A DNA stretch of 64,000 bases from a virus (taxonomy: Duplodnaviria > Caudoviricetes). This document shows positions 4,618-31,287 of this stretch, in pieces; positions within the stretch are counted from its first letter, which is position 1, and each line of letters starts with the position of its first letter. The position numbers and the translations under genes were made by a program. Location of the stretch: IMG/VR virus record IMGVR_UViG_3300037067_015270, positions 1 through 64,000 of that record; one strand, given 5' to 3'. The notes below the pieces were generated by a model. The model was not told where the DNA came from, did not search any database, and was given only the letters and a program-made list of their open reading frames with translations.

Positions 4618-7600
4618 CTATGTCTCTGCGGTCAATATGCCATCCGTGAATGTCAACATCCTTGTTGGACTACCACCGCTTGAATCTGAGACATAATAGG
4701 TCTTAGTGCCAGATAATCCACCAGTTGGACCTGTAGCACCAGTTGGACCTGTAGCACCAACAGGTCCGGATGCACCACCAGTATCTCCCTGTGGACCAGT
4801 TGCACCAGATGCACCGCTAGCACCATCAATTCCAGTAGCGCCGGTTAAGCCAGTTGCCCCAGAAGCTCCATCAACACCTGTTGCACCAGAAGCTCCATCG
4901 ATCCCTATAGGACCAGTAGCACCTGAAGCACCATCAATCCCTGTTGCACCAGTTGATCCGACAGGTCCTGATGCACCACCAGTATCACCTTGGATGCCAG
5001 TTGCACCAGTTAAACCAGTAGCTCCATCAATTCCTGTGGCACCGGTAAAACCAGTAGCGCCAGATGCACCGCTAGCCCCATCAATCCCTGTAGATCCGAT
5101 TAAGCCAGTAGCACCAGTAGCCCCGGACGCTCCATCAATTCCAGTTGCCCCGGTTAAGCCAGTAGCACCAGAAGCGCCGCTAGCTCCATATGGACCAGAA
5201 GCACCACCAGTTTCACCCTGGATGCCGGTTGCACCAGTGAATCCTGTAGCACCAGATGCTCCGTCGATTCCGGTTGCACCGGTTAAGCCAGTATCACCAG
5301 TGAATCCAGTGAATCCTGTAGCACCAGATGCTCCGTCGATTCCGGTTGCACCGGTTAAGCCAGTACCAGTTGCACCGGTTAAACCCGTTGCTCCTGAAGC
5401 CCCATCAACACCAGTGGCACCAGAAGCACCACTAGCTCCGTCAATTCCAGTCGCACCAGTGCCCGTGGCACCAGTAAGACCGGTGGAACCAGTAAGACCG
5501 GTATAACCAGTGAAACCGGTAGCGCCTGTTAAGCCAGTACCGGTAGCACCAATTGCACCAGACGCTCCCTGAACGCCCGTCGCACCAGAAGCACCGCTAG
5601 CTCCATCAATCCCAGTGGCTCCGGACGCTCCGGTTAAACCTGAAGCTCCATCAATTCCGGTCGCACCAGAAGCTCCGGATGCTCCATCAATACCAGTCGC
5701 ACCAGTTAAACCAGACGCACCTTGAACACCTGTAGCACCAGAAGCTCCGGATGCTCCATCAATGCCGGTCGCGCCAGTTAAACCAGACGCACCAGTTAAA
5801 CCAGATGCCCCCTGGATACCTGTAGCCCCAGACGCACCAGTATCACCAGTAGCACCAACTGGACCACCGTAAGGACCAGACGCACCCGTTAAACCCGTTG
5901 AACCAGTTAAACCTGTTGCACCCACGCCTGTCGAACCCGTAGGACCCGTAGCACCTATACCACTAGCACCAGCAGAGCCACTAGCGCCAGCAGAGCCAGT
6001 AGCACCGGAAGCACCAGAGGCTCCAGAAGCACCATTTATAGCGAGCCCGGTTGCACCAGTAGAGCCACCGACACCCGTTGAACCGGTAGCCCCGGTAGGA
6101 CCACCAGCAGGGCCAGTAGCACCCGAGGCACCGATGACGCTTACTCCTGTGGCACCAGTGGAACCTGCAGCCCCAGCAGTACCCGTAGCACCAGACGCAC
6201 CAAGACCGGTTGCTCCAATAGGACCACCACTTGGACCAGTAGCACCTGCAATACCTGTCGACCCAGTCGAACCAGCAGTACCAGTCAAACCGGTAGCACC
6301 AGTATATCCTATACCTGTTGCACCTGTCGCACCACCAGCTCCTGTTGTACCAGCTATACCAGTTGAGCCCGTCGAACCTGTCGGGCCAGAGGCACCTCCT
6401 GTCGGGCCGGTCGCACCAGCAGGACCACTAGGGCCAGTAGCTCCATCACCAAGTGGGCCAGATGCGCCAGTAGCACCAGTGGGACCAATGGGACCTGACG
6501 CACCGCCTGTATCACCTTGCAAGCCAGTAGCACCGGATGCTCCAATACCTGTGGCACCAGTTAGACCAATGCCTGTTGAACCGGTAGCACCAATAGGACC
6601 ACCGGCAGGACCTGTAGCACCAGTTAGGCCAATGCCTGTTGAACCTGTGGAACCTGTTGGACCACCAGAAGGACCAGTTGCACCAGATAAACCAGTAGCA
6701 CCAGTAGAACCGGTGAGGCCAGTGCCAGTAGCACCTCTTGGACCGCTAATACCAGTAGCACCAGTAGCGCCAACAGGACCGCCAGAAGGACCTGTGGCAC
6801 CTGTTTCTCCCGTAGCACCAGAAGCACCAAGGCCGGTCGCTCCAACGGGGCCGACAGGTCCGGTAGGGCCCTCAGAACCAGTTGAACCAGTAGCACCAGT
6901 CGGGCCACCACTAGGGCCGGTTGCACCTACTACACCAGCTGGGCCAGTTGCACCGTAAACGCCAGTTGAAGACCAAGACAAGTTTCTTAATCCATCAGTA
7001 ACTAAAACTTGTCCGATTGTTCCGTCTATATTCGGGAACTTCAAATTACTAATAATGACGTTCTTACCAGTGCCCCAAGCTGCAAGTAATAAATCTTGAT
7101 TTGTAGCCGAGTGTATCGAGTCGGTTTGTAGCCCATTAACATCGCTATATGTTAAGCCGGAACTGTCGGTTAAACGTCCGTTCGTAGTAGCAAAAGGAAT
7201 TCTATTTGGCGTTAATTTTGTCCCATCGTTTAAAACAAATCCCTTCCTGGCACCATCAGTCGTAATAGTAAAATAAAGGTCGTCAACTTTGAATTCAGTA
7301 ACACCTGGTTCCGGAACAGCTAGGACATCGCCAGTAGTTAGTTTAAATGGTCCTTTTCCAGCCTCAGAAGAGCCAGCTGGGATGTGTAGTCTTGCTGTCG
7401 GATTGTATTCTCCGATACCGACTTGTTCACCGTCAATTATGGTACCACCATCTCTGATCAGTGTCGCAACGTTATAAAAGTTTGTTAAGCGATAGGCATC
7501 ATAAATCGGTACTCCGGCACTGTCTGTTAAAGTAACAGTGCCAAGCCATCTATGCCCCTTATAAACACCAGACGCGGTATAAACTGGCACGCCATCTAGT

Positions 7601-12992: not shown

Positions 12993-13006
12993 AGATTGGC
13001 GGTACA

Positions 13007-13327
13007 ATGAGCCTAGATACTATCACAATCGTTCGAGAAATTCCAATTATTAATGGATATTGTTCGTTGGAAAACAACAATCCAGCGAACAAGACATCTG
13101 TGCCAGTAGCTGCTTTCATCGCGGCAACTGGCGGTGTTGTCAACAGACTATCACAAGCTAGTGGTACCGGCAGAAATGGACGCAGGCATGGTATACAGGA
13201 ATGGGTGGAGTTCTACGAAGAAGTAGCTTGTTGTCAGGGAGATGCAGCATTGGAAGCTGGTAAGACTTTATACCAAACCAATGAGCGTACCGACGAAGAG
13301 ATAGCGTGGAACACTAGTCGGCAGTAG
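13007..13327 (+). CDS. hypothetical protein
   Basis: 106-aa ORF directly after the previous gene. Confidence 0.6.
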   Translation: MSLDTITIVREIPIINGYCSLENNNPANKTSVPVAAFIAATGGVVNRLSQASGTGRNGRRHGIQEWVEFYEEVACCQGDAALEAGKTLYQTNERTDEEIAWNTSRQ

Positions 13328-13883
13328 TTTCTTTACCCTGTACAGCCTCGGTAGCAATATCAAATTGTTGCTTGATATATCTCGTCGCGAACACCAGTAG
13401 TGTATTGAGATTTAAAACGACCTTGTATTCGCTGTGTTCAAGATGAACTAATATTTCATCATTGATTTGATTATCACCAGATAACTCAACCGCGCCAACA
13501 GCATTATTCAGTACTCTGCCGTTAACGTGAGCAACGACACCGTGGCCGACTGGATCTACCCAATCATCAGATAAGCCAGTAATATCCATAAATGCCAGCA
13601 GTTTTTTACTTTCCGGAGATCTAGCTAAACTAGATGCCATACTTGAAGGCTGTGGCAATCTAACTGCTATGTCGCGTTCCACCGGCTCTTCGTCATCATC
13701 GAATTTCACAATCCATGTCTCGAATGGTCTAACAGCAGAATAACACTTCCGAACCAACTTCACTAAAGTGGCAACCCCTTCGCAAAGTGGTGGTCGATTT
13801 GTCAAGTCATCATTTGGAAATGTAATGGCGCTCCACAATTTGAAGATATTAACCTTCTGCCCAACTTTTAAAGCTGTTTTCAT
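13314..13883 (-). CDS. hypothetical protein (start probably MKTALK)
   Basis: ORF; ATG at 13883 is preceded by AGGGG, which is formed by the 3' end of an orphan CRISPR repeat. Confidence 0.65.
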   Translation of the reverse strand: MKTALKVGQKVNIFKLWSAITFPNDDLTNRPPLCEGVATLVKLVRKCYSAVRPFETWIVKFDDDEEPVERDIAVRLPQPSSMASSLARSPESKKLLAFMDITGLSDDWVDPVGHGVVAHVNGRVLNNAVGAVELSGDNQINDEILVHLEHSEYKVVLNLNTLLVFATRYIKQQFDIATEAVQGKETTAD

Positions 13884-13892
13884 TCTATACCC

Positions 13893-13928
13893 CCTGTAGC
13901 CACCTGGAAACAAGCAACGCGACAATAA
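13893..13928 (-). CRISPR. orphan degenerate CRISPR repeat
   Basis: CCTGTAGCCACCTGGAAAC matches array repeat CCTGTAGTCACCTGGAAAC at 18/19 positions. Confidence 0.75.
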
Positions 13929-13951
13929 TCTCCTTATTCTATATACTGTGG

Positions 13952-14479
13952 CTAAGCCATTTGCGGCCTTCTTTTCTTGAGCAGATCTCGTAAGTGATCG
14001 TTTTCGGCTTCGAGTTGTTTGATTCTTTCCATTAGTTCGTCAATAATAGCACTCATTCGTGCCTTTTCGCGACGAGCTACAGCATATGGATCTTCTCGTT
14101 TCTTTGGTGTTGTCGGCTGAGCGTTTTCAGCTTTGCTTGCTCTATTCTTGGCCTCATTATCGTCTAAGACCCTTTGTAACATTTGATATAACTTACCATT
14201 TGCCCATTGTTCCTCGTCCGGGAAATGGTCTAGAACAAGCTTCAATTCATAGAATGTTGCACAAAGGTCGTCGACGTATTCGTCAAGAATACTGAGCAAC
14301 TTATCGTCGTCGAACATGTTGTGATCGCTTCGAAAATCCTGATCATGGTAGACCTTCGTGAGCAACGTAATACGATGGTAAGCGTTACTGCCGCTCTGCT
14401 GTCGAAGTTCCTTGGCTTCCAACAATAAGCTTTTGTATGTCTTCGCGGACTCTTGATTCGTCTGTTTTGTCGATTTCAT
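13952..14479 (-). CDS. hypothetical coiled-coil protein downstream of CRISPR array 1
   Basis: 175-aa ORF with GGAG RBS. Confidence 0.7.
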   Translation of the reverse strand: MKSTKQTNQESAKTYKSLLLEAKELRQQSGSNAYHRITLLTKVYHDQDFRSDHNMFDDDKLLSILDEYVDDLCATFYELKLVLDHFPDEEQWANGKLYQMLQRVLDDNEAKNRASKAENAQPTTPKKREDPYAVARREKARMSAIIDELMERIKQLEAENDHLRDLLKKRRPQMA

Positions 14480-14630
14480 TAATAGTTCTCCTCAATCGTT
14501 TGTGGAAACCAGATAAATGGTAACATTCTCTACTACAATACTTCTGTTTGCCAGTCAATGGCATCTTACATATTGGACACAATTTACCTGAACGGGCAGC
14601 CATTTCTTCTGGCTCATATTCTGTAGTCAC
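14385..14630 (-). CDS. possible small Zn-ribbon protein
   Basis: CPIC...KYCSREC motif, but it overlaps the next gene by ~95 nt and its GTG start lies in a repeat fragment. Confidence 0.35.
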   Translation of the reverse strand: MTTEYEPEEMAARSGKLCPICKMPLTGKQKYCSRECYHLSGFHKRLRRTINEIDKTDESRVREDIQKLIVGSQGTSTAERQ

Positions 14631-14633
14631 CTG

Positions 14634-15145
14634 CCTGTAGTCACCTGGAAACGAACGCTATTTAACATTTCGCGTGTTTCTCGTCGTGTCCTGTAGTCAC
14701 CTGGGAACGAACGCTATTTAACATTCTAGCAGCCGAACAGAAATCCTGTAATCACCTGGGAACGAACGCAAATCGACACTGCTCTGTAGTCGATATTCAA
14801 TATTGACCAAGACCCCGAATTGCTGTATGGGAATAATCCCTGTAGTCACCTGGAAACGAACGCTATTTAACTTCAACCGGAAAACCGCAAGCGTTTTCGG
14901 CCTGTAGTCACCTGGAAACGAACGCTATTTAACATTTCAAAAAGACGACAGCGGTTTTTCCCGACCCTGTAGTCACCTGGAAACGAACGCTATTTAACAT
15001 TTGTCCTCTGGGAACGAACGCTATTTAACATTTCGCGTGTTTCTCGTTGTGTCCTGTAGTCACCTGGAAATGAACGCTATTTAACATTTGTTGCATCGCT
15101 CGTGTTTCTCCTGTAGTCACCTGGAAACGAACGCTATTTAACATT
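14634..15145 (-). CRISPR. CRISPR array 1 (36-nt repeat; 8 full-length copies, one degenerate, plus fragments)
   Basis: Plus-strand repeat CCTGTAGTCACCTGGAAACGAACGCTATTTAACATT at 14634, 14690, 14745 (degenerate), 14839, 14901, 14966, 15053 and 15110, with partial copies at ~14784 and ~15008. Clean spacers are 19-29 nt. The array starts 11 nt after the stop codon of the 401-aa gene. Confidence 0.95.
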
Positions 15146-15156
15146 ACGCTGATGGG

Positions 15157-16362
15157 TTATCCAGCCATCCTCTTACGCTTACACTCGCCGACACGCCGAA
15201 CAACAACATCAATATCGACCTTGTTGCAAGCCTTTTGAATCAGCGAACTCATTTGTTGCCAATCCCATCGAGTTGATTCCATATCGCAATCACGTACACG
15301 ACCGATTTTTTCCATGCATCGGTCGTCGCGTGTATCGCCAACAGGCTCAAATACCACAAGCCGACCTATACCTGCAAGACGGAGCCGCCTGACCATTTCG
15401 TTGGCGAGATGGATATTCCACGTCTTGACGAAATCTCGCCATCGCCGCGTCAACTTCTCTCGGCTACTGATCGCGACTTTCCGCTTCCTTTTGCCAGCAT
15501 TACAGACACGCTGGATTGTTAGAGACTTGCGAGTATAACCAATATCGTTACCACGGCGCAAACGAGTACTCGTTCTGCCATTAATGCGAAACAAAATCGG
15601 ACGTGCGAATCCGCCAGACAAGAAAGCCGTCTTATTCTTGTCGATTGGTAGCTTTACCTTTGGGATAGAATGGCAAATCTGAGCATACCATTTGCCGTCG
15701 CGTTCGAGTAAATCGACGCCCTTGATATCCCATTCTTTGGCAGCAATCTTCCAAAGCATATCACGAATGGAATGAAGACGATAATCTTTGGTCTTGATTT
15801 TGAAGACCATCACGGTATCATCTAGACACGCCTGTAACTTCCAATCACCATCGTCTGCGTCAGGTATGATGATGTGGCAGTCGCTTGTGTAAAACGGAAT
15901 TATACCGCGTTTAGAAGATTGTGGCAATTCACCAAGTCCGGATAGAACAATCATCCATCGAGGATAGGCCGACTTGATGCCGGACTTCCTGATCAGATTC
16001 TTCATCGCCTTGTTGATTGCCAATTGAATCTGCTTCGTGTCGTAGTCGGGATGCGATTCGGCGATAATGGCACGAAGCCGGTCGTTCATTTCAGGGCTAC
16101 ATGGATCGACAGGACATCGGGTACGGGGACCGACCCGACTGGCCGGGTCATATAACCATTGTCTATCGTGCGCCATCCATTCTCGGACGACCAAATGGTT
16201 GCCTGCTTCATAATGAAGACGGAGCCAAGTAGCTGCGAAATCATTCGTGCACTGCTGGATTTTGGTGGCGAGAGTAGACAGAAGCTTCTTTTCTGCTGCG
16301 AAGTCTCCGTCGCTACCAATTAAGTCAACCCTTTTGTTCTTGACGATTCGTTGTAATCCCAT
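15157..16362 (-). CDS. cas12f: Cas12f-like (type V-F/TnpB family) effector, predicted nuclease-dead, 401 aa
   Basis: Motifs IIPFY, LWKIAAKEWDIKGVDLL..GKWYAQICH, KTAFLSGG (RuvC-I Asp replaced by S249), GRLVVFEP, WDWQQM..LIQKAC. Ends before the Zn finger and RuvC-III. Flanked by an array and a tracrRNA-like gene. Confidence 0.85.
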   Translation of the reverse strand: MGLQRIVKNKRVDLIGSDGDFAAEKKLLSTLATKIQQCTNDFAATWLRLHYEAGNHLVVREWMAHDRQWLYDPASRVGPRTRCPVDPCSPEMNDRLRAIIAESHPDYDTKQIQLAINKAMKNLIRKSGIKSAYPRWMIVLSGLGELPQSSKRGIIPFYTSDCHIIIPDADDGDWKLQACLDDTVMVFKIKTKDYRLHSIRDMLWKIAAKEWDIKGVDLLERDGKWYAQICHSIPKVKLPIDKNKTAFLSGGFARPILFRINGRTSTRLRRGNDIGYTRKSLTIQRVCNAGKRKRKVAISSREKLTRRWRDFVKTWNIHLANEMVRRLRLAGIGRLVVFEPVGDTRDDRCMEKIGRVRDCDMESTRWDWQQMSSLIQKACNKVDIDVVVRRVGECKRKRMAG

Positions 16363-16374
16363 CTAGCTCTCTCC

Positions 16375-16473
16375 AAAATAAAGGTGACTCTGGCGAGGGC
16401 TAACACGGTACGAAATGCCCGCAGCTATTCTCGCCTTCGAGACGTACAGGACGCCTCTGGTTGAGTCTTGTTT
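16375..16473 (-). ncRNA. tracrRNA-like RNA, copy 1
   Basis: One of three near-identical elements. Upstream -10 TACAAT (16477-16482), hairpin with a CCUGU loop, GGCGAG/CUCGCC stem, 3' AGUCACCU then a U-run. Both anti-repeat parts are complementary to the repeat 3' end AGGUGACUACAGG. Confidence 0.8.
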
Positions 16474-16508
16474 CATATTGTAGTACGAAAAAGGAATTGG
16501 TTAATTGC

Positions 16509-16704
16509 CCTGTAATCGTTGCACAACGCCCTGTAATCACCTGGGAACAAGCAGAAGAACGAGGCCCTGTAGTCACATGGGAACGAGAGGTACTCTCCAT
16601 TTTCGACTTTTATTCGTGTAAGGTTCAAGTTCTGTAGTCACCTTGGAACGAACGGTACTCTCTATTAGACTCGACAAGAACGTATCGATGCCGCTCCTGT
16701 AGTC
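16509..16704 (-). CRISPR. degenerate mini-array downstream of tracrRNA copy 2
   Basis: Repeat variants at 16509 (fragment), 16530, 16566, 16631 and 16696 (3' 9 nt only); two 29-nt spacers (16602-16630, 16667-16695). Confidence 0.75.
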
Positions 16705-16797
16705 AGGTGACTCTGGCGAGGGCTAACACGGTATGCTAGATCCGCAGCTATTCTCGCCTTCGAGACGTACAGGACGCCTCTGATTGAGTCTTGTTTC
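16667..16797 (-). ncRNA. tracrRNA copy 2 fused to a repeat end and spacer (natural sgRNA candidate)
   Basis: Minus strand reads ...CTCGCCAG-AGTC-ACCT-GACT-ACAGG-[29-nt spacer]; own GTGCTACAAT promoter at 16801-16810. Confidence 0.7.
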
Positions 16798-16857
16798 ATA
16801 ATTGTAGCACGAGTTAACTTGCTGATATTCTTCCCGTCTGATACTTTCCGGAAACTT

Positions 16858-16989
16858 CCTATAATCACCTGGAAACGAGCGCTTGCTTGTGTGTTCGATG
16901 TCCTGTAGCCACCTGGGAACGAACGCTATTCTCCATCAGTTAAACAATTTACATTACGCTGGTAGGTCTATTTGGCCTGTAATCACCTA
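16858..16989 (-). CRISPR. degenerate repeats downstream of the 431-aa gene
   Basis: CCTATAATCACCTGGAAACG (16858), CCTGTAGCCACCTGGGAACGAACGCTATT (16902), CCTGTAATCACCTAG (16976), and a leader-like ACATTACGCTG at ~16951. Confidence 0.65.
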
Positions 16990-16992
16990 GTT

Positions 16993-18288
16993 CTATGCCG
17001 CTTTCAACTTCTTCTTCCGTTCACCAATCTTCCTGACCGTGACCTCGATACCAACAGCCTTGCAGGCTTGTTGTAATAAAAGCTGCATCTGATACCAGTC
17101 CCATCCGGTCGATTCCCTGAGTCCAGGAATCTTCCCAATTTTGGACAGGCATCTCGAATCACGCAAGTCCCCAGCGGGCTGATACACAACGACACGACCT
17201 GTCTTGGATTTGATACACCGTTGCACAACTTCTGCGGCCCATCGGCTATTGGTCGTCTTGACCATATCACGCCATTTCATCCTAATCTTATCGCGCCACT
17301 GTATCGACTTCCTACCGTGTCCTTTCCTGGCACTCGATGCGTATTTGTACGATTCATTCTTACCAAAACGTTGGTTAGTGAGCGACTGCCGTACACGTTC
17401 AATCTGCTTGCCATCGAGGAGGCTCATTAAGGTCCTATCACCGATTCGCAGCATCATACCATTGTGGTATCCCGCAGACACGAAAGCCGTCTTCATGCCG
17501 TCTAACACTGGCTTCTCGACATTTGTAATCTTGTAGCAAATATGGGCATACCACCGACCGTCACGAAGAACGAGTGAAGAAGTGTTAAAAATCCACTCTC
17601 CGGACGCAATCTTCCACAAAGCCTCGCGGATGGTCTTCAAATTGCGACCACCTGTTCGCATCTTGAAGACCATTGGACGTAACGTACGCGTTCCAATCCT
17701 CTTCTCGAAGCGAACTTCCAATTTCCATGGGTCTTTGATGGTCTTCGGAATTATGACGCTGGCGTTCGAAGTATAGAACGGAACCGGCGCTTGTTTTTGT
17801 GCTTGTGGGAATTCACCAAATCCGGAAAGAATCGTCATCCATCGCTTGTAAGCCGATTTCGACGATGGCATCTGAGTGAGAGTCTTCGCGGCAATTTGTG
17901 TGACGATACCGATTGGCTTCGTTCCGAGATTACCATGTTCCTCAGTCAGCAACTTGTAAAGCTGTCTCGACATTGCTGGATCACACGGATTGACAGGGCA
18001 TTTAATACGCGGCGGTGCTCCCTTCTTGCCTTTATAGGCTTTCGCCCATTCCTTATCCTTCTCGATCCATTCTCGAACGGCCAGATGATTTCCGGCTTGC
18101 TGATGCAACCGTAGCCATTGATTGGCGTAATCGTTCACAATCTGTTGCATTTGGATTGCTAATCCGGCGAGACATTTTTTATCTGCTGCGAAGTTGTCAT
18201 CACTACCGGTCAATTCAACGCGAATGATCTTCGTGATGCCATCGGGCTTCTTTTTACGTGGTTTCTTCGCTTCAACTAATTCACTCAT
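16993..18288 (-). CDS. cas12f: Cas12f-like effector, predicted nuclease-dead, 431 aa
   Basis: Colinear with Cas12f1-type motifs: IASGEW...WYAHICY, LDGMKTAFVSAG (D to S271), DGKQIERVRQ..KYASSARKGHGRK, KTTNSRWAAEVV, GRVVVYQP (no RuvC-II Glu), WDWYQMQ..ACKAVGIEV. No CxxC Zn finger or third catalytic Asp. Confidence 0.9.
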   Translation of the reverse strand: MSELVEAKKPRKKKPDGITKIIRVELTGSDDNFAADKKCLAGLAIQMQQIVNDYANQWLRLHQQAGNHLAVREWIEKDKEWAKAYKGKKGAPPRIKCPVNPCDPAMSRQLYKLLTEEHGNLGTKPIGIVTQIAAKTLTQMPSSKSAYKRWMTILSGFGEFPQAQKQAPVPFYTSNASVIIPKTIKDPWKLEVRFEKRIGTRTLRPMVFKMRTGGRNLKTIREALWKIASGEWIFNTSSLVLRDGRWYAHICYKITNVEKPVLDGMKTAFVSAGYHNGMMLRIGDRTLMSLLDGKQIERVRQSLTNQRFGKNESYKYASSARKGHGRKSIQWRDKIRMKWRDMVKTTNSRWAAEVVQRCIKSKTGRVVVYQPAGDLRDSRCLSKIGKIPGLRESTGWDWYQMQLLLQQACKAVGIEVTVRKIGERKKKLKAA

Positions 18289-18333
18289 TTCGTCTCCAAA
18301 ATCACTTTGGACGGTTATCCTCTATAATCATAT

Positions 18334-18428
18334 AAATAAAAGGTGACTCTGGCGAGGGCTAACACGGTATGCTAGATCCGCAGCTATTCTCGCCTTCGAG
18401 ACGTACAGGACGCCTCTGATTGAGTCTT
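18334..18428 (-). ncRNA. tracrRNA-like RNA, copy 3
   Basis: Same element as copies 1 and 2; TGTGCTACAAT extended -10 at 18433-18443; ends AGTCACCTTTTATTT. Confidence 0.8.
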
Positions 18429-18486
18429 CATAATTGTAGCACAAAAAAGGAATTGGTTAACTGGAATTCAATCTATTCATCGAGCC

Positions 18487-18990
18487 TCTGCAGTCACCTG
18501 GGAACGAACGCCATTTACAACCTTTCCGAGAACGAATCGACGATGCCCTGTAGTCCTGTAGTTACCTGGAACGAACACTATTCGGCTTACTTGATACTCG
18601 ATTGGGCAAGCCCTGTAGTCACCTGAGAACGAACACTATTTAACATTCTACTCACCTGTAGTCGCCTGGGAACGAGTGCTATTCAATATTTGGAATAGTT
18701 ACATTTGTAACGGTCTTAGCCCTGTAGTCACCTGGGAACGAGTGCTATTCAACATTTTGAACTAAAATGAACGATTTAGACAGTCTCCTGTAGTCACCTG
18801 GGAACGAGTGCTATTCAACATTCGCCGTGTTCTCCTGTAGTCACCTGGGAACGAGTGCTATTCAACATTCGCCTTTGCAGTTTAGCGCCCCTGTAGTCAC
18901 CTGGGAACGAGTGCTATTCAACATTCGATATCCGCATGACCCTTAAGTACGGCACCTGTAGTCACCTGGGAACGAGTGCTATTCAACATT
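18487..18990 (-). CRISPR. CRISPR array 2 (36-nt repeat; 7 good and 2-3 degenerate copies)
   Basis: CCTGTAGTCACCTGGGAACGAGTGCTATTCAACATT at 18721, 18787, 18834, 18890 and 18955, with variants at 18655, 18612, 18555 and 18487. Spacers are 29, 20, 11, 30, 30 and 7 nt from the leader end. Degeneration increases leftward, so the leader is on the right. Confidence 0.95.
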
Positions 18991-19095
18991 ACGCCAATGG
19001 GTGGTGTGTTGAATAGCACTCTGATTTGTTATAGCACAACAACGATGCTTATTAATTTAACAGGATATTAATTCTGTCCGGTGTCGTGCTATAAT
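18991..19095. promoter_or_regulatory. array-2 leader with anti-repeat and divergent extended -10 promoters
   Basis: TGTTGAATAGCACTC (19007-19021) is the reverse complement of repeat nt 20-34. Minus-strand TGTGCTATAAC at ~19027-19037; plus-strand GTGCTATAAT at 19086-19095. Confidence 0.65.
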
Positions 19096-19100
19096 TGAGT

Positions 19101-19799
19101 ATGAAGCTCAATAAGCGATACATCTATCCGCCCCGTCCAACTAAAAATGCCATTCCATTCTCCGAAATAGGGGTATACTCACAATACGGGTGGGTGGCAC
19201 AATTGAAGGTGAACGATCTTCGTACCGAATTCAGTATAGCTGGAGATGATGTCGAGTTCTTCAATCGCCACAACGGTAAGCATCAACCGAACCGTATCCC
19301 ACAATATATGGCAACAGAAGTCCTTGAGATCTGCAGAAAATTGGGCTTCGGTGTTGATGGATGGAATTATCTTGACGGTGGTCTAATGTGTTGTAAGAAT
19401 CGCCAGGTCTCAGGGATTGCAGCCATTTGGGATATTTTAGTGCTGCAGGGGGAGTGGCTCTTGGATACCACTTACCAATATCGCTATGACCTGATCGCTC
19501 AACAAAACTCAGAGCCGTTTATTATTACGGTCGGCGGCAAGGACTTTGATATTGGGCTCAAATTGAGTGAGCATATTTTTATTCCTCGACTATATGAGGA
19601 TTATAATATTCCGTGGCAACTAGCCAAAGACGTAAATGCCGCTGCCGGTTGGTCTGGTAAAGATGATGGTGAGAACATCTTGGAAGGCGTCGTCTTGAAG
19701 GACACAACCGGTATCTTGAAACCGGACAACGGTAAGGAAGCCAATAATACTTCTTGGGGGGCGCGTTCTAGATTCACCACGGGACGATCGCGCTTCTAA
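19101..19799 (+). CDS. ATP-dependent ligase/capping-enzyme-like nucleotidyltransferase (adenylation domain only)
   Basis: Motif I WVAQLKVNDLR (KxDGxR variant), FFNRH, YLDGGL, WDIL, motif IV EGVVLK; probably a leaderless transcript. Confidence 0.7.
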   Translation: MKLNKRYIYPPRPTKNAIPFSEIGVYSQYGWVAQLKVNDLRTEFSIAGDDVEFFNRHNGKHQPNRIPQYMATEVLEICRKLGFGVDGWNYLDGGLMCCKNRQVSGIAAIWDILVLQGEWLLDTTYQYRYDLIAQQNSEPFIITVGGKDFDIGLKLSEHIFIPRLYEDYNIPWQLAKDVNAAAGWSGKDDGENILEGVVLKDTTGILKPDNGKEANNTSWGARSRFTTGRSRF

Positions 19800-19886
19800 T
19801 TTTCAGCGTGTTTCTTCCGATGACAATTAGCACAAAGCAAATCGCTTAGGATAGTTTGGATTAATAGTAATACTTTGTGGTGCTAT

Positions 19887-20108
19887 ATGAGAGACAAAAC
19901 CAAAAAGATAGAAGAAATCGAACAAACAAATCTCCAACGATTTTGTTCAGAAGTGTTATGCTGTCTGATCTCGAAGGGCTCACGGATGCGTATTAGTCGC
20001 TGCCAATATCTCGAACGCCGTGGCAAAGAACCAGAGGAACTGACGACCAGCGAGAAGATAATCAAGCTAATCTTCTTGGATTGGTTGAAATGTCAACTCC
20101 GGTGGTGA
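19887..20108 (+). CDS. hypothetical protein
   Basis: short ORF (MRDKTK...) after GTGCTAT. Confidence 0.45.
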   Translation: MRDKTKKIEEIEQTNLQRFCSEVLCCLISKGSRMRISRCQYLERRGKEPEELTTSEKIIKLIFLDWLKCQLRW

Positions 20109-20489
20109 TCAACCAGATTGGGCTTTGTTGACGAGATGCCTCAACATCCACGTCGCCAGATTATCGCCCCTGTGCGACCGGTCCTCTAATGCTTTAGCGA
20201 ATTCTTTGTTATCTCTGTTATCTTCGCAGATTCTATCGTAGCACTTCTGGAACTCCGCAGCATTAGTTTCCGTCTTTAGAGCCTCGGCTTCATCGAATAG
20301 CTTATCTCTTTCCTCACCCTTAGCCTTGCCCGCACGATTATAGATCCTCTTCATCTCGTCGTAGAGCTTCTGACCACGCAGGCTCTTTCTAGGCTTTTCT
20401 TCCCGGACCTTATCTCCTATTTTCGCACCCACCTTCGAGGGGTCTATATTATCAAGTGCTTCGTATAATAGTCTATCGAAGTATCTCAT
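20109..20489 (-). CDS. hypothetical charged protein (candidate internal head protein)
   Basis: MRYFDRLLYEALD start; CAAATATA motif just upstream. Confidence 0.65.
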   Translation of the reverse strand: MRYFDRLLYEALDNIDPSKVGAKIGDKVREEKPRKSLRGQKLYDEMKRIYNRAGKAKGEERDKLFDEAEALKTETNAAEFQKCYDRICEDNRDNKEFAKALEDRSHRGDNLATWMLRHLVNKAQSG

Positions 20490-20506
20490 GTAATATATTT
20501 GATGCA

Positions 20507-20535
20507 TTGATAAAGATACGTTCTGGTGCTATAAT
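20507..20535 (+). promoter_or_regulatory. sigma70-type promoter
   Basis: TTGATA-17 nt-TATAAT with extended TG. Confidence 0.65.
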
Positions 20536-20550
20536 AAGTTGGAGGAGGTC

Positions 20551-20943
20551 ATGATGAGATTGTTATTGGAAATGGCATTCACGAGGAGTGCTTATAAAGA
20601 CCAATTAGAGCACAAACTGACCGGTGCTTTAATTCATTTCTACCAAATTGAATACGCAAGAACAAATGACAAACAGAAATGGATTAATCACTGGTCAACA
20701 GAATTGAAGCGGCTACTAGACGAGTTCCAGGCGCTTTTACTACACAGCATTAAGGGCAATTGGAATCGCGCCGTGGCTGCACGAGAAGTCATGATGGCGA
20801 TGCGCAAAAATAATAGTTATCGAATTGCCGCATACAACACAGTCTGCCGAGACTTCAAACAAAAATTCTCAAAAAGCCTTCCGGACCAATCTGCATCAAA
20901 ATTCTGGACCAAAGTAAACAACATCATATCAGATATAGGATAA
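20551..20943 (+). CDS. hypothetical protein (DUF29-like helical)
   Basis: GGAGG RBS; L.HF.....Y....W...W..EL pattern. Confidence 0.65.
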   Translation: MMRLLLEMAFTRSAYKDQLEHKLTGALIHFYQIEYARTNDKQKWINHWSTELKRLLDEFQALLLHSIKGNWNRAVAAREVMMAMRKNNSYRIAAYNTVCRDFKQKFSKSLPDQSASKFWTKVNNIISDIG

Positions 20944-20948
20944 GTAGT

Positions 20949-21146
20949 ATGCGTGTGCGTGATATTGCACCTACCGCCAAACTCATTCGAGACGATCGCA
21001 AAATTGTCGATGAACTTTGCGTATGCGGCTGTTTGAAATCGAATCACGATGGTCGCGATTGCGAACAGTTTGCGTGGGTTTCATTCAAATTGGAAGACGG
21101 AACTTTCTGGCCAGATCCATCGCCAATCGTACCAGAAACGAACTAG
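20949..21146 (+). CDS. hypothetical small Cys/His protein
   Basis: 65-aa ORF with CVCGCLKSNH. Confidence 0.55.
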   Translation: MRVRDIAPTAKLIRDDRKIVDELCVCGCLKSNHDGRDCEQFAWVSFKLEDGTFWPDPSPIVPETN

Positions 21147-31117: not shown

Positions 31118-31287
31118 GATCTACTCCATGTTTAGAAAATTCTCTGTAGTCGCCTAGTTATAAAATACATAATGTATTTTACTATCAGAGCTCAACAAAT
31201 CAACGCATAGGTGCTATTATCGCAACTACAACACAATTCCCAATCAATCTTGTTATTCCATTAGCTTCTGAAGAAGAGTGTCAGTAT

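Follow-up and report, generated by a model that had tools for sequence, protein, structure and literature searches.

Three compact putative tracrRNAs with a split anti-repeat beside nuclease-dead Cas12f paralogues in a phage genome

The dcas12f locus and its repeated element

The DNA considered here (hereafter the window) spans positions 1 to 64,000 of the 122.5-kb IMG/VR virus record IMGVR_UViG_3300037067_015270, whose completeness is estimated at 34%. Between 14.6 and 19.1 kb it carries a locus in which a small element, present in three copies and discussed below as a candidate trans-activating CRISPR RNA (tracrRNA), accompanies CRISPR arrays and two genes for proteins related to Cas12f. Read along the minus strand, on which all of these features lie, the order is array C (18487..18990, 9 repeats), copy 3 of the element, the gene of a 431-aa protein (P0001, paralogue B; 16993..18288), a degenerate array B (16530..16988) that is split by copy 2, copy 1, the gene of a 401-aa protein (P0002, paralogue A; 15157..16362) and array A (14634..15145; 8 repeats of 36 nt, whose 3' ends are complementary to the tail and loop of the element). 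A position in or near a CRISPR-cas locus is one hallmark of tracrRNA genes, and the three copies all lie between arrays and effector genes, as do the elements of 13 related systems. No Rfam family was detected in a scan of 13000-21000 at E values up to 1, and no near match to the locus was found among phage GenBank records.

A repeat search recovered the element as one family of three 96-nt copies (16382-16477, 16705-16800 and 18341-18436) that are 86-93% identical, and a DNA search of the entire record showed that these are all the copies it holds. The initial annotation had proposed, from the letters of the window, three near-identical minus-strand elements with a -10 box, two hairpins and, in copies 1 and 3, a terminal U-run; repeat search, alignment and folding bear out each of these features, as well as the statement that what sets copy 1 apart from the other two is chiefly the apical loop of hairpin 2. 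In the minus-strand alignment copies 2 and 3 share the TG-extended -10 box GTGCTACAAT, copy 1 has GTACTACAAT, and copies 1 and 3 present the arrangement TTAACC, 16-nt spacing, TACAAT. The predicted gene of copy 1 (16375..16504), supported by repeat family, alignment, fold, covariance model and promoter scan, comprises a -35 box (16499-16504), a -10 box (16477-16482), hairpin 1 (16439-16457, with its loop at 16446-16450), hairpin 2 (16392-16435), the putative anti-repeat tail (16382-16389) and the U-run (16375-16381), with only 19 nt from the tail to the start codon of the 401-aa gene. Copy 3 (18334..18460) has its -35 box at 18455-18460, its extended -10 box at 18433-18442, the loop at 18405-18409 and the tail at 18341-18348, followed by the U-run, and lies 52 nt (tail to start codon) from the 431-aa gene. 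Copy 2 (16667..16818; extended -10 box 16801-16810, loop 16769-16773, tail 16705-16712) lacks the U-run: its tail is immediately continued by the 3'-terminal 9 nt of a repeat (16696-16704) and then by a spacer. This layout amounts to a single-guide-like unit, a natural fusion of scaffold, truncated repeat and spacer. A promoter-like sequence, TCGCCA-17-TATGAT, is also present on the minus strand at 18327-18355, overlapping the 3' end of copy 3, and might allow the 431-aa gene to be transcribed without the tracrRNA promoter.

Covariation of the element and its predicted pairing with the repeat

The minus strands of the three copies fold more stably than shuffled controls (z = -3.3, -1.9 and -3.2), and the plus strand shows no significant fold (z = -1.1 and -0.5). 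A covariance model (R1), a check suggested when the element was first described, was built from the window copies and two related phage contigs, and it detected the element in every related dcas12f locus with flanking DNA (22 hits in 16 sources, E values from 6e-34 to 1e-4), with an additional weak hit in locus L024 that was confirmed by eye. The hits are always on the strand of the gene and upstream of the dcas12f gene or of an array. In the alignment of 22 sequences, 97% of the cells at paired positions are indeed paired and 14 of the 21 pairs have changed on both sides; none of 500 shuffles reached the observed value, and slid registers gave 25-48% pairing. Both hairpins covary, and the linkers that join them are single-stranded and conserved. 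The many G.U pairs, which would be A.C on the opposite strand, establish the minus strand as the RNA sense. The 19-nt sequence of hairpin 1 is even identical between loci whose proteins are only 50-52% identical. When representative prokaryote genomes were searched with a degenerate core pattern, 44 stretches were retrieved and none scored with the covariance model.

The relation between element and repeat was studied in 13 systems where both are available, drawn from IMG/VR, JGI metagenomes and ENA/Logan contigs (related loci are given here as L numbers). In an anchored test, the stretch that follows hairpin 2 formed a contiguous helix of 8-18 bp with the repeat of its own locus in 12 of the 13 systems, always ending 5-6 nt from the repeat 3' end. 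In the thirteenth, L029, the anchored test gave 5 bp, and a helix is found at offset 7, which by hand reaches 9 bp with one G.U. The tail helix is made of 11 distinct sequences across the systems, for example AGUCACCU with AGGUGACU in the window, ACUUGCCU with AGGCAAGU in L009 and UCGUUCUUUG with CAAAGAACGA in L026, and it averages 10.5 bp within a locus versus 4.2 bp when tails and repeats of different loci are combined. The G.U pairs present in tail helices (5 of 18 in L024) favour pairing between RNAs over a DNA inverted repeat. The long repeat:anti-repeat stem that characterizes Cas12f1 systems is recognizable here in a short form, of 8-18 bp across the family and, at the lower end of that range, 8 bp in the window.

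The 5-6 nt that close the repeat, adjoining the spacer on its 5' side, are complementary to the loop of hairpin 1 together with its closing pair (CCUGU with ACAGG in the window). The loop and the repeat end have changed in concert in four systems, namely CCUAC/GUAGG in L020, CUUGU/ACAAG in L023, CUGCG/CGCAG in L024 and UUGCA/UGCAA in L026. For L020 the repeat end was predicted beforehand from tail and loop, and a matching solo repeat was later found at the stop codon of the gene. The split anti-repeat that had been put forward, with the loop facing the last 5 nt of the repeat and the tail the preceding 8 nt, was thus recovered in the window, where complementarity amounts to 8 plus 5-6 nt, and both pairings covary with the repeat across relatives. 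The shorter pairing, seen from sequence as complementarity and covariation, requires in the case of a 5-nt loop that the closing pair opens, and this closing pair is the least conserved pair of hairpin 1. Fully paired loops of 6-7 nt are known in kissing complexes such as TAR-TAR*.

Co-folding of copy 3 with an array-C repeat yielded the 8-bp duplex with both hairpins kept, at -44.3 kcal/mol versus -39.2 kcal/mol for the separate RNAs. No other same-strand anti-repeat of at least 10 nt recurs in the compared loci. The leader of array C holds, at 19007-19021, a perfect 15-nt same-strand anti-repeat that complements array-C repeat positions 3-17; as a rival tracrRNA candidate it was discarded, being absent from all related loci examined. 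In L026, positions 1120-1130, 1.7 kb upstream of the element, hold an 11-nt same-strand complement of the repeat 3' end, which may be due to chance or represent a second docking RNA.

When up to one mismatch is allowed, there are 23 occurrences of the 13-nt repeat end, all of them on the minus strand, against 0.03 expected. Two remote matches, at 31143 and 36709, were not counted, as each has two mismatches and about 2.7 of this kind are expected by chance in the record. It had been suggested that a scaffold needing only these 13 nt would explain why they are the best-conserved part of the repeat. Over 22 repeats the 3' 13 nt are indeed 96% conserved versus 80% for the 5' 23 nt, but positions 16-23 also reach 90-100%, which the 13-nt model does not account for. 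These positions correspond to the block UCGUUCCC, located just 5' of the paired 13 nt and lacking a complement in the element.

The arrays themselves show several peculiarities. Spacers of arrays A and C are irregular in length (11-30 nt) and include near-duplicates, as after 14690 and 15053; those of L005 and L023 are a regular 30 nt. In L028 (4249-4478) one 30-nt spacer is found three times in the array, which would be unusual if the array recorded immunity. Several repeat ends, at 18545-18569 and in L007 at 1770-1818, 2362-2410 and 5801-5985, carry a tandem duplication of the final 8 nt, thereby providing two consecutive loop-binding sites in those units. A conserved 12-nt motif of the ACCC..GGCGU type (minus strand) stands just before the first repeat of each array, at 15138-15157, 16948-16967 and 18983-19002, and also in L004 and L007; a role as array leader or in processing is conceivable. 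Spacer targets in the 122.5-kb record itself amounted to 3 weak hits versus 0-6 in shuffles, and the comparison of L005 and L023 spacers with cultured phages gave noise-level hits (E = 0.3) or no match.

Partner proteins, proposed function and alternatives

The 401-aa and 431-aa proteins are paralogues (44% identical) that had no hits in a Pfam search. An exhaustive search returned 291 clusters of relatives at 50% identity, with most of the 150 listed being of about 400-510 aa. Homology to the Cas12f1 effectors is evident in both sequence and fold: a profile of 45 family members matched AsCas12f with an E value of 5e-38 and the nuclease-deactivated Cas12f 9n9c with 2e-15, and Foldseek comparison of an AlphaFold model (predicted local distance difference test score of 92) gave 1e-20 for AsCas12f, 3e-16 for dCas12f 9n9c and 2e-10 for TnpB. 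The intact D-E-D triad of RuvC and the C-terminal zinc-finger/RuvC-III segment are both missing. The position of the RuvC-I aspartate is occupied by R, S, W, V, T or H, that of the RuvC-II glutamate is Q in 39 of the 45 sequences, and no acidic column in the 45-sequence alignment reaches 85% conservation. Where the WDW motif is kept, 27-63 residues (typically about 36) follow it, and the protein stops short of the zinc-finger/RuvC-III part. Cas12f homology combined with the loss of the catalytic triad points to a dead Cas12f (dCas12f), and the neighbouring proteins, including the truncated paralogue B with its Cas12f fold, are accordingly predicted to be unable to cut DNA. Five relatives with neighbouring gene calls have portal, capsid, integrase, ParB and recombinase genes of phage type nearby. 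Together with the 291 clusters, these phage-like contexts suggest that phages use RNA-guided DNA binding widely.

In the mechanism proposed, each copy would specify a compact tracrRNA of about 90-95 nt, encoded on the minus strand and serving the two neighbouring dCas12f paralogues. The RNA would be made from its own promoter and either end at the U-run or be cut from a longer transcript running into the dcas12f gene or array. It would then anneal to every repeat of the precursor CRISPR RNA, its 3' tail forming a shortened version of the long repeat:anti-repeat duplex with a repeat segment whose end lies 5 nt short of the spacer, and the loop of hairpin 1 pairing with the repeat's final 5-6 nt to give the short repeat:anti-repeat, a presumed pseudoknot. 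The composite scaffold would be bound by dCas12f, and the spacer, located 3' of the repeat, would direct DNA binding without cutting, most likely blocking transcription. To the core of this proposal, a scaffold RNA that pairs with the repeat end through loop and tail, we assign a probability of roughly 80%. That it exists in this phage as a discrete trans-acting RNA of about 95 nt, as the predicted promoters and terminators suggest, is rated only somewhat better than even. In distant relatives a canonical terminator hairpin immediately follows the tail, and in L023 a near-consensus promoter (TTGACT-16-TATAGT) ends at the first base of the element; these elements appear to be discrete small-RNA genes.

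Several observations weigh against this interpretation, and the separate existence of the RNA in the window is its weak point. The U-run is not accompanied by a terminator hairpin in the window clade, and a ribosome-binding site and start codon lie within 19-52 nt, meaning that much of the RNA may exist as leader of the mRNA or array transcript. The systems compared are mutual relatives, and the permutation test of tail-repeat pairing, in which 0 of 20,000 permutations reached the observed sum, thus overstates their independence. A hairpin loop of 4-5 nt pairs fully only if its closing pair opens. Moreover, the minimum-energy fold of the free RNA sequesters part of the tail in a 5-bp outer stem with the 5' end, and this stem persists in the co-fold with an array-A unit. 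As a conserved structure the outer stem was rejected, with only 70% pairing in the alignment and 417 of 500 shuffles scoring as high, implying that the tail is constrained by something other than an intramolecular helix; its calculated energy is -5.0 kcal/mol versus -11.3 kcal/mol for the 8-bp duplex. The position of the element directly before arrays in L004 and L007, and the close start codons in the window, may mean that the RNA is released by partial termination or by leader processing.

An unlikely reading, although the best of the alternatives, is that of a purely cis-acting element: as the 5' leader of a dcas12f mRNA or of an array transcript, it would either control translation (for example through a protein bound beside the ribosome-binding site) or fold onto the first repeat of the same transcript, with no separate RNA acting in trans. 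This would agree with the 19 nt that separate copy 1 from the start codon, which leave no space for another promoter, with the L004 and L007 copies that immediately precede arrays with the U-run alone between them, and with the L004 copy at 5261-5355, whose start coincides with the stop codon of the gene upstream and which lacks a dedicated promoter. However, the strong terminator of the distant relatives stands between tail and gene, arrays are found up to 1.3 kb downstream of the gene, and a single element serves arrays of up to 16 repeats, all of which keep the complementary end. The two modes are not exclusive either, given that a leader can be processed into a tracrRNA.

Less probable still is that the working form is a contiguous single guide of the type represented by copy 2 and by the sigmaE-linked dCas12f systems, the arrays being decaying remnants. 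The fused copy does fold with a 4-bp stem and 4-nt loop in place of the 8-bp duplex, the window arrays are degenerate with their irregular spacers, and the sigmaE-dCas12f systems work with guides of this type (PMC13472631). Nevertheless, only one of the three window copies is fused and none of the 19 other model hits in relatives has a repeat end fused to the tail; in addition, L005, L023 and L026 possess regular arrays of 11-16 repeats with ends that match the tail perfectly, and what follows copies 1 and 3 is a ribosome-binding site, not a loop-binding motif. Finally, a module working purely at the DNA level, for instance as a recombination site or as a promoter or leader that was duplicated, could account for the promoter-like box and for duplication along with the gene, but this already disfavoured view is hardly credible in the face of the compensated pairs (14 of 21), the strand-specific G.U pairs, the identity of hairpin 1 in spite of protein divergence, and a tail that covaries with the repeat, G.U pairs included.

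If the scaffold RNA proposed above needs only 13 nt of repeat and, in the window clade, occupies a leader position, the system may also work as a self-wiring regulator in two ways, a doubtful extension that we offer tentatively. In the first, effector translation would become coupled to guide supply once a repeat end had paired, or dCas12f had bound, on the nascent leader at 19 nt from the start codon. In the second, possession of the 13-nt handle would allow any phage or host transcript to be recruited as a guide, the candidates being the orphan handle at 13893-13905 and the fused copy 2. Were this true, engineered tracrRNA reprogramming would have its natural equivalent here.

Comparison with known systems

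In the literature outside subscription journals, no paper was found on this phage dCas12f family or its tracrRNA. The design itself has clear precedents. A long repeat:anti-repeat combined with a pseudoknotted short one of 5-7 bp is the published arrangement of Cas12b, Cas12f1, Cas12g and Cas12l, and Cas12f1 needs a tracrRNA with such two-part pairing (PMC11246509); the split anti-repeat is consequently a family design in miniature and no new principle. The initial annotation had attributed two separate duplexes, one of them a pseudoknot, to Cas12f and Cas12k alike, which is right for Cas12f1, whereas Cas12k uses a triple helix (PMC11246509). What is new here is the miniaturization, the dead effector and the phage setting.

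The closest resemblance is to Cas12f1 (AsCas12f, SpCas12f1, Un1Cas12f1, CnCas12f1), the best protein match by both profile and fold, with which the system shares a guide 3' of the repeat and a long stem plus a 5-7 bp short pairing beside the guide, the pseudoknot being predicted in the present case (PMC11246509, PMC12255294). The conserved RNA core of Cas12f and TnpB consists of stem 1, a pseudoknot and stem 2, and the SpCas12f1 tracrRNA has 156 nt within a single-guide RNA of about 200 nt (PMC12255294). In contrast, the core described here has about 80 nt and two hairpins only, its long duplex is reduced to 8 bp (8-18 bp in the family), the effector has neither the three catalytic residues of RuvC nor the C-terminal zinc-finger/RuvC-III part, and the tracrRNA gene is found in phage genomes, in multiple copies, upstream of the effector gene or array.

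The sigmaE-linked dCas12f systems (PDB 9n9c) are likewise based on a nuclease-dead, C-terminally truncated homologue with a small scaffold and probable transcription control, and copy 2 resembles a collapsed single guide. According to Hoffmann et al. (Nature 2026; PMC13472631), they employ single guides, with no tracrRNA found and mostly no arrays, and copy 2 is the kind of intermediate postulated there. In their guide, base pairs have been placed at residues 77-79/87-89, inside the 14-nt 3' guide (10.1101/2025.06.10.658880), a numbering that implies a core of about 75 nt. The earlier description of the present scaffold as very compact therefore stands as regards its ~80-nt core and 8-bp duplex, but such compactness is not unprecedented. 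The two groups differ in that the family studied here is much nearer to AsCas12f (profile E of 5e-38 versus 2e-15), keeps its arrays and a separate scaffold gene, and, with the exception of copy 2, has scaffold and repeat-spacer units apart instead of one chimeric guide; furthermore, no sigma-factor Pfam domain was found in the seven open reading frames around the locus, which is thus not recognizable as an operon with an extracytoplasmic function sigma factor (rpoE). A CRISPR-linked dCas12f cluster shown in Extended Data Fig. 1a,b of the same work (PMC13472631), from a Chitinophagaceae metagenome-assembled genome (MAG) with a guide against an efflux promoter, also combines a dead Cas12f and neighbouring CRISPR arrays with a putative guide-RNA element that covaries and is intergenic. 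It comes from bacterial MAGs, unlike the present family, and the brief description on which this comparison is based contains neither a two-part anti-repeat nor a phage context.

Two further groups are similar in some respects. The TranC transposon-CRISPR intermediates (Jin et al., Cell 2025, as described in 10.64898/2026.03.27.714800) combine an effector of TnpB size with a scaffold split into tracrRNA and CRISPR repeat, and some are phage-borne; they are, however, active nucleases nearer to TnpB, whereas the dead family described here is far nearer to Cas12f than to TnpB. TldRs (10.1101/2023.11.30.569447) are phage-encoded, RuvC-dead and C-terminally truncated RNA-guided DNA binders that function as repressors, but they use one omega-RNA-type guide, as in TnpB-type systems, and have no arrays and no tracrRNA. 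Among these relatives, the locus would provide a natural, covariation-defined minimal scaffold (a core of about 80 nt, an 8-bp duplex and a 5-6-bp loop pairing) for a non-cutting DNA binder of 400-430 aa, and with it a starting point for very small tools of the CRISPR interference type. It would also bridge the gap from Cas12f nucleases that use two RNAs to dCas12f transcription factors that use a single guide, with the window holding both forms, the separate copies and the fused copy, side by side.

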